Assembly: GCA_034530875.2 (NCBI GenBank)
Contig: JAVRCJ020000007.1
Location: 160,001-224,000 of the forward strand
DNA length: 64,000 bases
Direction: 5' to 3'
Origin: Nostoc sp. DedSLP01
GTDB lineage: Bacteria > Cyanobacteriota > Cyanobacteriia > Cyanobacteriales > Nostocaceae
The notes beneath the pieces were generated by a model. It did no database searches and was not told where the DNA came from. It was given only the letters and a program-made list of their open reading frames with translations. Positions 42,909 to 48,540 of the stretch are shown here, piece by piece. Position 1 is the first letter of the stretch. Each line of letters opens with the position of its first letter. A program made the position numbers and the translations under genes.

Positions 42909-44087
42909 TTAGGCAGCCTGACCTGGCTTGAGCACGATCTTGATACAGTTGTCCTTCTTGTGTTTAAAAATCTCGTAGCCGTGCGGTGCTTTCTCTAGCG
43001 GTAAACGGTGAGTGATTACAAAAGATGGGTCGATATCGCCATTTTGGACGCGCTCGAGTAACGGGCGCAAGTACTTATGAACGTGCGTTTGTCCCGTTTT
43101 AAATGTTAAGGCTTTGTTCATGGCAGCACCCATCGGTATCTTGTCTACAAAGCCGCCGTAAACACCAGGAATTGAAACAGTGCCACCTTTGCGACAGGCA
43201 ACAATCACTTGCCTTAGGGCAGTGGGTCGGTCGGTTTCCATACGCACGGCTTGCTTTACCTGGTCGTAAAACGCATCAGGGCCCGTACCGTGGGCTTCCA
43301 TTCCCACAGCATCCATGCAAGCATCGGGGCCGCGACCACCCGTCATTTCTTTCAATGCTTCACCCACCTCGACTTCCTCATAGTTAAGGACTTCTGCCTT
43401 GCCGTCTTTCGCCATCTGTAGGCGTTCGAGAACTCGATCGATTGCAATGACGCGCTCGGCACCTAGCATATATGCACTTCTAATGGCAAACTGTCCGACT
43501 GGACCGCAGCCCCAGATCGCTACAGTATCTCCTGGCTGGATATCGCAGTTTTCCGCTGCCATATAGCCAGTGGGGAAAATATCCGTCAGAAACAGGACTT
43601 GTTCGTCTGTTAGTCCATCCGGAATCTTGAATAAACCGACATCGGCAAAGGGAACGCGGGCATATTCAGCTTGACCTCCAGCATAGCCACCCATCATATG
43701 GGAGTAGCCGAAAAGACCAGATGGAGAATGACCCATCAGTTTTTCCGGTATCCAGCCGTTGGGGTTGGAGTTATCGCACAGCGACCACAAATCTTTTTGA
43801 CAAAAGAAACACTGACCGCAGGAAATGGTAAAGGGGACGACAACGCGATCGCCTATCTTCACATTCTTGACGGCACTCCCTAGCTCGACGACCTCCCCCA
43901 TAAATTCATGACCAAGGATGTCGCCCTTTTCCATCGTGGGGATGTAACCGTCATAAAGATGTAAATCAGAACCGCAAATCGCCGTTGACGTGATTTTAAC
44001 AATCGCATCACGCGGATTGATGATTTTTGGATCGGGTACTGTATCAACTCGTACATCGTTAGCGCCGTGCCAGCAAACTGCTTTCAT
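42909..44087 (-). CDS. Zinc-dependent alcohol/formaldehyde dehydrogenase-like protein (copy 1)
   Basis: ICGSDLH, GHEFMG, structural-Zn Cys cluster, GCGPVG. Confidence 0.93.
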
Positions 44088-44092
44088 AATCT

Positions 44093-44572
44093 TTAACCTC
44101 CCTTTGGTTGACCTTCTGTTGTTGCAATCTCGCCTGTTTCCATCAGCATTTTGAAGCGGCGTAAATCATCTCCAATCTGCTGTTCTGGTTCTTCGCCGAA
44201 GAGTTTGGCAATGGTAGCTCCAATCGCACCACCAGGCGGGTTATATTCCGTGACGACCTTTACCTCTGTACCGCGATTGGCGGGTGCTGGCTGGAAGCGG
44301 ACAGAACCAGAGTTATCAACATCTGCACCTTCAATCGAAGCCCAAGCAATCAATTCGTTTTCCCGATCTTCAATGATGTCTGCATCCCATTCAATACTTA
44401 CACCTAACGCCCCACTGGTCGTCCAGTGCGTTCGCTTATTATTGTGTACTTTTACGTCTTTGAGATGCTTCATGAAGCGCGGCAAGTTCTCAAAGTTATG
44501 CCAAAAGCGGTAGAGTTCCTCTGCTGGTTTGTTAATCGTTACCGTCTTTTCAACTTTAATTGGTTGGCTCAT
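44093..44572 (-). CDS. SRPBCC (polyketide cyclase/START) family protein (copy 1)
   Basis: [10 protein letters not shown]...W..FENLPRFM...[20 protein letters not shown]. Confidence 0.88.
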
Positions 44573-45048
44573 GTCTATTGTCTCCCGTGTTTGCTGTATG
44601 GTGCTTTGTTTATCGCAGTTTGGACAAACAAATTTGTCCAAACCCTAATACCAGGAGTGGAGAACAGTGTAGAATAAAAGCTTATTAGCGAGAGGTATGT
44701 AAAAGTCTCTTGAAAAAATTTACCCTTCGTATCAGCCTTCTAGACTACTAAAAAATTAACTACTACAAATGAATACCTGAACCTTAAAGCTTTCAACTAA
44801 ACCTAACCTCTAACTAAAGAATGGGATTGGTGTTAAGTTAGTTGGTTCTCGCTTATACCTTGGCGTAATGCTAAGGAAGCTTTCATTATTTTTCCTCTTT
44901 TGTATTAACTCAAAACAGGCTGTGGGGTATAGGAATTAAAAATCTCAAAACAGTACACCCCACACCGTTCGGCTGACGCTCACGGCGGAAGCCCTACTCC
45001 CTACACCCTGCCCTGACGAGATTGCGTCTTTTCAAACGCAACATTTAC

Positions 45049-46218
45049 TCAAGGCTGCAATCTGACTTTTATGCAATTGTCTTTTTTGTGCTTAAATAAC
45101 TCAAACCCTTGCTTTGCTTCCGTGAGGGGCAAGTGATGTGTGAATACAATAGATGGATCGACTTCACCCTTCAAAACGTAATCCAGCAAAATAGGCATAT
45201 ACTTTTGACCGAACATTTGCCCCATTCTGAAGGTCATGGCTTTGTTCATGGCAGCACCCATTGGTATTTTGTCTACAAATCCACCATAAACACCCATGAT
45301 TGAAAGAGTACCAGCTTTGCGACCGCTGACTATCATTTGCCGCAGGATGTGAGGGCGGTCTGTTTCTAAGCGAACCGCTTGCTTGGCTTCATCGTAGAAT
45401 CCTTCTAAACCAGAGGCGTGGGCTTCTAGTCCCACTGCATCAATGCAAGCATCGGGGCCGCGTCCTCCGGTCATTTCTTTGAGGGCGTCACCGGCATCAA
45501 CTTCTTCATAGTTGATGACTTCTGCTTTGGCAAAATCTTTAGCTAGTTGCAGGCGTTCGGGAACTCTGTCAATGCCAATGACGCGTTCTGCACCCAAGAG
45601 ATAAGCACTACGCATAGCGAACTGTCCCACTGGGCCGCAGCCCCACACTGCTACGACATCTCCAGGCTTGATATTACATAAATCTGCACCCATGTAGCCA
45701 GTGGGGAAAGCATCGGAAATTGGTAGCAGTTTTTCGTCAGGAATATCTTTAGGAACTTTGATTGTGCCCAAATCGGCAAAGGGTAAGCGCACGTATTCTG
45801 CAAAAGCACCTGCGTAGCCACCAAAAGCGTGGGAGTAGCCATAAATGCCTGATGTAGAATAACCGTATACCTTTTCTGCTATCCAGGCATTGGGATTGGA
45901 ATTATCACACAACGACCACATTTGCCGTTCGCAGTAGAAGCAATGACCGCAACCAATCATTGAAGAAACAACGACGCGATCGCCTTTTTTCAATCTCTTG
46001 ACTTCACTACCAATTTCAACGATTTCGCCCATAAATTCGTGACCGATAATGTCACCGGGTTGCATTGTTGGAATGTAGCCATCGTAAATGTGCAAATCAG
46101 AACCGCAGATAGTTGCTGATGTAACTTTGAGGATAGCGTCACGGGGATTAAGTATTTTTGGCTCTGGCACTGTTTCCACCCGTACATCGTTAGCGCCATA
46201 CCAACAAACAGCTTTCAT
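45049..46218 (-). CDS. Zinc-dependent alcohol/formaldehyde dehydrogenase-like protein (copy 2)
   Basis: Paralogue of 42909-44087 with the same motifs. Confidence 0.93.
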   Translation of the reverse strand: MKAVCWYGANDVRVETVPEPKILNPRDAILKVTSATICGSDLHIYDGYIPTMQPGDIIGHEFMGEIVEIGSEVKRLKKGDRVVVSSMIGCGHCFYCERQMWSLCDNSNPNAWIAEKVYGYSTSGIYGYSHAFGGYAGAFAEYVRLPFADLGTIKVPKDIPDEKLLPISDAFPTGYMGADLCNIKPGDVVAVWGCGPVGQFAMRSAYLLGAERVIGIDRVPERLQLAKDFAKAEVINYEEVDAGDALKEMTGGRGPDACIDAVGLEAHASGLEGFYDEAKQAVRLETDRPHILRQMIVSGRKAGTLSIMGVYGGFVDKIPMGAAMNKAMTFRMGQMFGQKYMPILLDYVLKGEVDPSIVFTHHLPLTEAKQGFELFKHKKDNCIKVRLQP

Positions 46219-46221
46219 AGT

Positions 46222-46710
46222 TTACCCTTTACCTCTTGGTTGACCTTCAGTTGTGGCAATTTCCCCTGCTTCCATCAGCATTTTGAAGTGACGTAAATCT
46301 TCTGTGAGATTGTGTTTTGGGTCTTCACCAAAAAGTTTGGCGATCGCATTTCCAATTGCACCACCAGGTGGGTTAAATTCTCTAACTACTTTCACTTCAG
46401 TACCGCGATTACCTGGCGCTGGCTTAAACTGAACTAAGCCAGAATTTTCAATTTCTGCACTTTGAACTGAAGCCCAGGAAATTATTTCGTTTTCCCGGTC
46501 TTCAACAATGACTGTATCCCACTCTAAGTTTTTATCTAAAAGTCCTTCAACAACCCAGTGGGTTTTTTTATCATCGTACACCTTGACTTCTTTGAGATGC
46601 TTAATGAAGCGCGGTAAATTTTCAAAGTTACGCCAAAATTGGTAGAGTTCTTGTGCTGGTTTGTTAATCGTTACCGTTTTTTCAACTTTAACTCGTTGGT
46701 TCGCCATCAT
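46222..46710 (-). CDS. SRPBCC family protein (copy 2)
   Basis: Paralogue of 44093-44572; AGAGG upstream. Confidence 0.88.
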   Translation of the reverse strand: MMANQRVKVEKTVTINKPAQELYQFWRNFENLPRFIKHLKEVKVYDDKKTHWVVEGLLDKNLEWDTVIVEDRENEIISWASVQSAEIENSGLVQFKPAPGNRGTEVKVVREFNPPGGAIGNAIAKLFGEDPKHNLTEDLRHFKMLMEAGEIATTEGQPRGKG

Positions 46711-47402
46711 TACCTCTTGTGCTTACTTGGCATATATTGTTTTGTTGTTTTATATAAAAGCTTAAAAAGATTTATTTATCTATTTAGCAATCCAATTTGA
46801 TTTTTGAATTGCTAGTAAACAAAGGAAACAGAGCAAAAATCTACTTAGCTTCGCATAAATCAAACAGGAGTTGTATTGTTTAAATTTTTATTTAAAAATG
46901 AATCATTTAGAGTCTTTCAATAGTATTATTTCCTAAAAATATTCCTATTACAAAAGGAAGAGTTATTTTTTTAATAGTTACTAAAGTTTCTCCTCATTAA
47001 ATATGATTTATATTTTGATAAAAGTAAGTTAAAGTAAGTATTTTATATCTATCTTTTAATAGCTTAATCGTTAAAATTTGCTAGCAACTGTCTAGCAAAT
47101 TATAATTGATAAATAGTCTACCAATAGAAGTAGAAAATAACCTCAACCAGAGGGTAGGGTGTCTGAATTGCATTTTGCTTGTTAATTCTGCTCTTTATTG
47201 GTAGCTTAAAACTACCATGAATCAATCTTGAGGATGATTTAATACTTTTAGAGATTGTTTTAAAAGTGGCTGGCTGTAATTTTAATCGCATTTTTACCTA
47301 CCTTAATCCCACCAATAGATCGGAGGGAAACAAGAAAAATCAGTTTAACGTACCAGTTTTTTAGACGCGATTTATCGCGTCTCTACATGAGATAAATAGC
47401 GC

Positions 47403-47654
47403 CTCTTCATTGTTACACGCACTCTGTAGCAGCTTCCGCCTTGGCTGTAGTAACTTCTGCCTTCACGTTTCAGTGTTACGCGCACCCTGTAGCAACTTCC
47501 GTCTTGGCTGTAGTAACTTCTGCCTTCACGTTTCAGTGTTACGCGCACCCTGTAGCAACTTCCGCCTTCACGTTTCAGTGTTACGCGCACCCTGTAGTAA
47601 CTTCTGCCTTCACGTTTCAGTGTTACGCGCACCCTGTAGCAACTTCCGCCTTGA
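47403..47654. repeat. Tandem array of twelve 21-nt units of two types
   Basis: A = CGTTTCAGTGTTACGCGCACC; B = CTGTAG(C/T)AACTTC(C/T)GCCTT(CA/GG); order A' B B A B B A B A B A B. Confidence 0.92.
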
Positions 47655-47761
47655 CTTTATTAGAAACGTTTTTCAATAAAAATCAACAATTTTACGTATG
47701 ACAATGTTTTAAGCAATTGTCCACTATAGAGTTATGGCAAATTTAGAAATAGGTATTAATT

Positions 47762-48124
47762 ATGGTAAGAGCGAAACGTAATTCACGTGTTCTCGGTAAA
47801 GCTGAAACACGTTTGGCAAGTGTTAAATCCATCAATCCAATTCTAGATGTTGGGGAAGGTTTAACAGTTAAAGATTATACTGATAGAATTGAAAAACTGA
47901 GAAAATCTCTTGAAGCTTATAATACTACTCTTTCTACTATCGATATCTTACTAACCCAAATCGTTGAAAACGAAGAAGATTTGGCTGACTATTCTGAAAA
48001 GTTTTTGCGTGGTATTGCTTATAAATTTGGTAGTAATAGTTACGAATATAAAATGGCTGGAGGTACTCGTAAAAGCGAGCGCAAGCGTACTGGGCGTCAA
48101 AGCGTGGTTTTACCTACTAGCTAA
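47762..48124 (+). CDS. Conserved hypothetical protein (120 aa, coiled coil, C-terminal YxMAGGxRKSER)
   Basis: Clean ORF with AGGT upstream; basic termini and a helical core. Resembles, from memory, an uncharacterised cyanobacterial family. Confidence 0.8.
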   Translation: MVRAKRNSRVLGKAETRLASVKSINPILDVGEGLTVKDYTDRIEKLRKSLEAYNTTLSTIDILLTQIVENEEDLADYSEKFLRGIAYKFGSNSYEYKMAGGTRKSERKRTGRQSVVLPTS

Positions 48125-48147
48125 AGTTAGAACAAGTTGTAACGCAC

Positions 48148-48176
48148 ATACCCGACTTTTTTAAAAAGTCGGGTAT
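48148..48176 (+). terminator. Palindrome/terminator after the 120-aa gene
   Basis: ATACCCGACTTTTT-T-AAAAAGTCGGGTAT. Confidence 0.65.
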
Positions 48177-48410
48177 TTAAATCTAGGCAATATGCGATCG
48201 CACATCTTTTATAATAAATGGCTTAATTTCATTTCTTGAATGTAGTTACTTTAGCTCACCACTTCACACAGCCGTTACCAACCATAGTATTTTTTACCTG
48301 GTTTCTGACGTCAATATCTGATAACAATAGAGAGCTGCTAAGAGTTGAAATCAAAGCCAAACAACACCAAAGGTTCTAAAAATAGTCACATCTGGCTAAT
48401 GCAACGTTAA

Positions 48411-48540
48411 TATAGGACTCACACTTGATTTTTGAAAAAAATCAGTACATCCAGACAAGGCTTCTGTCCTACTCCCTACTCCCCATTCCCTACTCCCTGT
48501 CTACACAAATAAATTCTCCAAATCAAACCTGATTCCTATA
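48411..48540. mobile_element. MITE-like repeat
   Basis: TATAGGACTC...TTGATTT / AAATCAAA...GATTCCTATA imperfect inverted ends with an internal STRR tract. Confidence 0.6.

Follow-up and report, generated by a model that had tools for sequence, protein, structure and literature searches.

The stretch of DNA analysed here (the window, 64,000 nt from Nostoc sp. DedSLP01) contains at 47403..47654, on the forward strand, a tandem array of exactly 12 x 21 nt, in which two unit types follow one another as A' B B A B B A B A B A B. Both types share TT-N-Y-G-Y, found once per period at the same position. Tandem Repeats Finder gives the array two rows, one of period 63 (score 291) and one of period 42 (score 262), which are the top 2 among the 80 rows in the window. 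Together with comparison of the units, this bears out the description of the array in an earlier note on this DNA, including the observation that the unit farthest from the gene is the most degenerate: it has 5 mismatches to its type, the maximum, against 0-3 in the remaining units. The array looks non-coding, and an Rfam search over it gave no match. CRISPR-Cas, already discounted in the note, is ruled out, there being neither unique spacers nor cas genes, and bending through A-tracts was rejected as lags 10-11 are anti-correlated.

As the note also had it, an AT-rich spacer (47655-47761; 107 nt, 24% G+C) separates the array from an ORF at 47762..48124 on the same strand, which encodes a 120-aa basic protein (pI 9.6) belonging to no Pfam or NCBIfam family. 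Most of this spacer is a conserved leader (47669..47761, forward strand), likely the promoter and 5' UTR, which adjoins the start codon over about 95 nt and so lies between array and gene; at 21 loci of the clade defined by at least 69% protein identity, column conservation is 0.76-0.92 over -100..-1 against about 0.4 farther upstream. By eye, the leader holds an imperfect inverted repeat (47699-47704 / 47717-47722) and a possible -10 hexamer (47727-47732). A second, clade-wide leader motif, some 66 nt upstream of the start codon, was seen at six paralogues in the source genome, G000 (G000:C7:117374, C46:30660, C3:389262, C43:45781, C14:85598 and C21:86688), and at many other loci too; it is possibly an alternative-sigma promoter. 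T occupies 67% of the gene's four-fold sites. Among 1599 similar ORFs this is at the 99.9th percentile and may reflect high expression; in paralogues this preference is only mild. There is no avoidance of G at its silent sites (20th percentile; 0.20 across 147 homologues).

Two palindromes lie outside the array and gene: a REP-like sequence at 47362..47387 and a perfect 14-bp inverted repeat after the stop codon at 48148..48176, neither assigned to a strand. Both exist as the note reported, but they do not bracket a whole unit as it had proposed, being dispersed through the source genome at 23 and 4 sites, respectively, with up to 2 mismatches, and at 110 and 15 with up to 4. They are generic genome repeats, neither element ends nor part of the unit. 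The inverted repeat may end or protect the transcript; terminator calling at this position did not call it as a terminator. Elsewhere in the window, 48408-48540 is a dispersed repeat of about 130 bp with dozens of genome copies, and 42909-46710 is a tandem duplication of a two-gene pair, which we take from the sequences to be dehydrogenase-like and SRPBCC-like.

The protein family

Searches with the protein against Pfam, NCBIfam, PHROGs, PDB sequences and the ESM Atlas returned no named family, and 634 representatives at 50% clustering match it. The named homologues are from Nostoc, Calothrix, Fischerella and their relatives, named family members also occur across Cyanobacteria, Bacteroidota and Acidobacteriota, and one Atlas cluster of the family is mostly Thermodesulfobacteriota. 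No A1 member matches NCBIfam NF052641 (the PQLLE family), and the genome search was likewise without a match, as it was in every control genome. In the Acidobacteriota, a search of 301 genomes at E<=1e-8 recovered the gene in only 3. The family is chromosomal: two queries found no relatives in viral contigs, and a search with one query gave 1 match in 72,556 plasmids and 0 in 50,697 phages.

The AlphaFold2 model (pLDDT 94) is nearly all-helical, with helices at residues 9-24, 36-89 and 94-98, so that the protein is predicted to be a helical hairpin with basic ends. Consistent with the basic ends noticed earlier, basic residues are conserved at 3-6, 13, 17 and 103-109 and pI has a median of 9.6; residues 36-89 carry a hydrophobic stripe of heptad type. 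Fold searches, considered also for a Tas or Vipr effector fold, found only generic helical hairpins (best Z 6.6) and gave no DNA-binding clue; such generic matches do not in themselves establish a new fold. No HTH is predicted for the family. Across both clades the only invariant residues are G90, S93 and G100, with E71 and the start Met nearly so, and the otherwise conserved Tyr53 and Tyr96 are lost in the distant clade; judged by this pattern of conservation, an enzymatic function seems unlikely. We found no fused forms of 285-2000 aa, which is weak evidence; the longer representatives look like start-codon over-calls, one of them reading through its own array.

Arrays and genes across genomes

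The earlier note had proposed that homologues be collected and their flanks searched for tandem repeats. The homologue set comprised 199 loci, corresponding to 195 genes and, after dereplication, 147. At a periodicity score threshold of 0.6, 90 of the 129 homologues with at least 500 nt upstream have an array there whose best period is 21, 42, 63, 40, 41 or 62; no other period reached the threshold at any of these 129 loci, and the other 39 lack an array at this threshold. In the downstream control, period 21 was found in 1 of 133 homologues. This clade's array is on the gene's strand in all 33 rows compared, a count that enters one locus twice and includes one row with a truncated gene into which the array is fused. 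Arrays are present at 24 of 25 loci of the distant clade, and at 5/5 loci from the phylum of an Acidobacteriota genome. The proposed pairing of array and protein thus holds strongly across homologues, clades and genomes.

The sequence of the arrays is far less constant than their period. With falling protein identity, array similarity drops from 0.89 to 0.28 (0.27 when shuffled), although linkage alone would also give such tracking. Each protein clade has its own array sequence, with a period of about 21 kept while the sequence is free. Across 62 arrays a weak common pattern can be seen (information 4.3 versus 2.7 shuffled). The periods of 40, 41 or 62, which break the reading frame, are found in 16 of the 90 arrays; mixed spacing of 21+20 or 21+21+20 (periods 41 and 62), as in the array at G000:C19:145538, lies nearer to 10.3-10.5 bp per turn and is a possible handle on helical phasing. 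The median gap from array to start codon is about 190 nt. Within this clade it can be as short as 100 nt or as long as 1364 nt, with further repeats and entire genes inserted in it, and the phase is not fixed.

Some loci are disrupted or carry additional ORFs. In L261 (G267:C71, about 2126-2495) a deletion fuses the array into about codon 20 of the gene, with loss of the leader; in L239 (G233) an insertion with two transposase-like ORFs splits the gene; and L221, L223 and L226 have small nuclease-like ORFs, presumably GIY-YIG-like and DUF559-like by their sequences, next to the array or between array and leader. A core motif which we take to be HIP1 occurs near the array ends in 16/97 cases on each side against 6/85 in controls, a weak signal.

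Co-occurrence was examined in 121 related genomes of the family. The protein family is present in 43 of these genomes and this array in 29: 27 clear array matches all fall within the 43 protein-positive genomes, and two marginal ones (E about 5e-4, 27-30 nt) fall in protein-negative genomes. In all 21 clade genomes, among them one with a truncated gene and one in which it is split, the array precedes the gene, and 16 of the 22 protein-positive genomes without the clade lack it, leaving six genomes with this array and without the clade's gene. The genomes in these tables are kin and not independent, so that Fisher values calculated from them overstate the association. The array's own family is present in 20 of the 68 genera searched.

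Arrays without genes, and movement of the unit

An occurrence of this array elsewhere in the genome without the gene had been set against the idea in the earlier note, and literally there are two, the shorter gene-less copies at G000:C5:260440 and G000:C17:182583. Since gene-less copies still follow the protein at the genome level, the idea is refined and not refuted, but array and gene do not form a closed, one-to-one cassette: there are more gene-less arrays than gene-linked ones. The source genome has 11 family genes, of which 9 have an upstream array (one weak and about 700 nt away); the two without are an intact copy and a broken one, a paralogue with an internal stop and without a clear array (G000:C13:147527-147124, reverse strand). 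At least eight array types adjoin family genes in this genome.

Outside long ORFs the source genome has 68 periodic stretches, some of which may be short genes or noise; 61 were clustered, these being 58 that score at least 0.75 and three weaker ones added by hand. Array families with a gene-linked member have 11, 4, 3, 2 and 2 members, and the two largest, of 17 copies (G000:C14:186119-186464 and 16 related sites) and six (G000:C8:198200-198536 and 5 others), have no adjoining family gene either there or among the gene-linked loci; their partner may be a more distant family. Of the 121 genomes, 40 have the 17-member family; 37 of these belong to the 48 genomes in which either clade occurs, and 3 have no protein match. 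Five arrays of one family lie within 13 kb at G000:C2:184756-197641, one adjoining a distant-clade gene, a cluster which suggests local spreading.

For an unbiased check, 20-kb windows at fixed coordinates were taken from 10 gene-positive and 8 gene-negative genomes; one window was dropped as its genome carries the distant clade, and for three of the negatives the test used profile A1 only. The 60 windows from gene-positive genomes yielded 11 arrays, 8 of them strong (one looks coding and one adjoins a family gene), and the 57 from gene-negative genomes yielded 1 weak array. Gene-less copies occur in both orientations with respect to their neighbours.

The whole unit also changes place. The 21 clade loci lie in about 18 neighbourhoods, three pairs sharing flanks, and no enzyme recurs as a neighbour among them. 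In 12 same-genus genomes, among the matches listed (95 more fall outside), the unit is never beside the genes that flank it in the window, and its homology begins with the array and ends near the stop codon; some of these genomes have two or three copies, and the adjoining pair, presumably a dehydrogenase and an SRPBCC protein, often stays together. For 5 of 48 loci there is both a filled and an empty version of the site, a sixth pair being a shared gene-less copy; these pairs are too diverged for an insertion junction or target duplication to be defined. One gene-less copy occupies the equivalent place in another genus, so some gene-less copies are old. The likeliest mover of the unit would be a host or unlinked enzyme.

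A predicted DNA-coating protein and its alternatives

The locus is likely a two-part chromosomal element, in which a non-coding row of 21-bp units is joined by a gene whose product, small, basic and helical, likely binds those units. The earlier note had offered three readings of the array, as DNA binding sites, as a non-coding RNA and as a heptad peptide. The first fits best, the second found no positive support and the third is disfavoured: double-stranded DNA is favoured by the non-coding look of the arrays, by folding that is not biased to the gene's strand and by a weak two-fold symmetry. This symmetry exceeds that of shuffled sequence at p<=0.05 in 29 of 85 arrays and lies above the null mean in 67 of the 85, with the window's own array short of the cut-off (p 0.22). 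We consider it somewhat probable that the protein forms oligomers which coat its own two-turn repeats as double-stranded DNA, with two turns to each oligomer, and that the unit spreads in chromosomes. An oligomer would be expected because the short helix cannot cover the hydrophobic stripe of the 54-residue helix, and it would probably be an antiparallel dimer. Through its Arg/Lys-rich ends it would recognise a site of weak two-fold symmetry that recurs every two turns on one face of the DNA, and oligomers loading side by side would form a short nucleoprotein filament; by arithmetic from textbook rises, the 54-residue helix, at about 80 A, comes close to the length of 21 bp, at about 71 A. More tentatively, the coated array may promote its own copying, or its copying together with the gene, into new intergenic sites; the enzymes would be those of the host or encoded separately, given that the protein has no conserved catalytic set, and gene-less arrays would serve as extra docking sites.

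Several other explanations were weighed against this DNA-coating reading. Transcription of the array into a repetitive RNA scaffold or guide, on which the protein assembles with one protomer or dimer per unit in a VIPR- or TIGR-like layout, is in keeping with the constant strand of the array in all 33 rows, with a protein basic enough to bind RNA and with the considerable unit variation of some arrays; folding of 44 arrays is also somewhat better than that of column shuffles (mean z -1.5). We nevertheless regard it as unlikely: the opposite strand folds equally well or better (z -1.9), the window's array folds no better than shuffles (z +0.42 and +2.67), there is no G.U bias toward the gene's strand (34/85 arrays) and no Rfam match, the conserved leader separates array from gene, a search of the arrays for alternating fixed and variable segments found none (the period is 21) and unique spacers are lacking, and gene-less copies stand in either orientation to their neighbours. 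A little less likely again is a selfish system of the REPIN-RAYT type, in which the protein, or a recruited unlinked nuclease, cuts and moves the arrays and binding serves mobility only. An array family mostly has a single gene, its gene-less copies being dispersed, and the neighbourhoods in the 21 genomes and the filled and empty versions of one intergenic site are as such a system would give; against this, the protein has no HUH or other catalytic set, Tyr53 and Tyr96 being absent from the distant clade, the units are tandem and not hairpin doublets, no enzyme neighbour recurs at the 21 loci, and the whole unit moves, when RAYTs appear, from the available text, unable to move themselves (PMC3116915).

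The remaining explanations seem improbable to different degrees. The array could be an operator or enhancer of the gene's promoter, read by the protein or a host regulator, as its constant upstream position, strand and median distance might suggest; however, the variable gap together with the conserved leader argues against both a phased operator and a single array-gene transcript, and most arrays have no such gene downstream and have neighbour orientations that match background. More improbable still is hitch-hiking, the repeats arising by slippage and the co-occurrence by lineage history. The genomes are kin, and A never follows A across 500 unit steps, as homology-driven slippage of AB and ABB blocks would give, but slippage leaves unexplained why a period of about 21 is kept by unrelated sequences before genes 30-45% identical in two phyla. 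We give least credence to the array encoding a peptide of seven-residue repeats that pairs with the protein. Three frames are open across 47403-47654, two sense frames are each open in 52 of the 62 arrays of its family, and many open frames read as amphipathic heptads; yet open sense frames number 44 in 102 arrays against 51.7 expected (array bounds including some flank), the frame-breaking periods recur, and variation is not concentrated at third codon positions.

Constant-size tandem repeats of 20-21 nt, and also 40-41 nt, with variable sequence have been described in bacteria, including Cyanobacteria, by Subirana and Messeguer (PMC8161180), who, in the text available, note the two helical turns and propose a polymerising protein, naming neither a protein nor a linked gene. 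The arrays here agree with that class in unit size, in having at least four units, in being non-coding and in forming several families of the same period in one genome. They differ from the species-specific Bacillus repeats of that paper in that the present array family spans 20 of 68 genera, and they go beyond the class in being paired with a gene family clade by clade. The portion of PMC6749651 available adds nothing further on the 20-21-nt class. REPIN-RAYT systems are similar in having one distinctive gene beside its own repeats, gene-less copies in intergenic DNA and several parallel gene-repeat pairs per genome; as described in the accessible text, however, the RAYT is an IS200-like (HUH/Y1) transposase and REPINs are inverted hairpin doublets (PMC3116915), whereas here the protein looks non-catalytic and matches no Pfam or NCBIfam family, the units are phased head-to-tail in tandem, and the gene, too, is found in changing places.

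Plasmid centromere and iteron arrays can be grouped with KfrA; a plasmid location with stability or replication genes, as in such systems, was not found here. KfrA of plasmid RA3 is an alpha-helical oligomeric protein with repeats upstream of its own gene, features seen or predicted here too, but in the text available it has an HTH and five 9-bp repeats that overlap its promoter on a plasmid (PMC7783346), in contrast to a chromosomal family without predicted HTH, with a variable gap and many gene-less arrays. CRISPR, TIGR and VIPR share a periodic intergenic array beside a dedicated protein gene, but are described in the available text with fixed/variable alternation, periods of 60-79, 18 and 5 nt, and known effector folds; the main text of the same preprint contains no "21 nt/bp" and its section 2.3 names no 21-nt class (bioRxiv 10.64898/2026.10.21.760802). 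A literature search, covering mostly openly available main texts, found no paper on this gene-array pairing. The pairing is real and widespread and apparently undescribed as a pair, the repeat class itself being published.

Why unrelated bacterial repeats keep a 20-21-nt period is, in the text available, an open question in print (PMC8161180). A broader and more tentative proposal, which we hold possible but doubtful, is that the protein is a non-enzymatic ruler, polymerising on sites spaced by two turns with many parallel specificities and seeding docking arrays chromosome-wide; as part of this proposal, the ruler would be the missing factor behind the constant-size repeats, and either a selfish spreader or a sequence-addressed chromosome organiser. 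A candidate protein family can now be named for these repeats and matched protein-array pairs are supplied, for which mismatched pairs of the same genome can serve as controls, and dozens of gene-less sites are predicted to be targets. If the reading is true, the family would be a compact group of DNA-coating proteins with many natural specificities, and would represent a non-enzymatic route of repeat spread.
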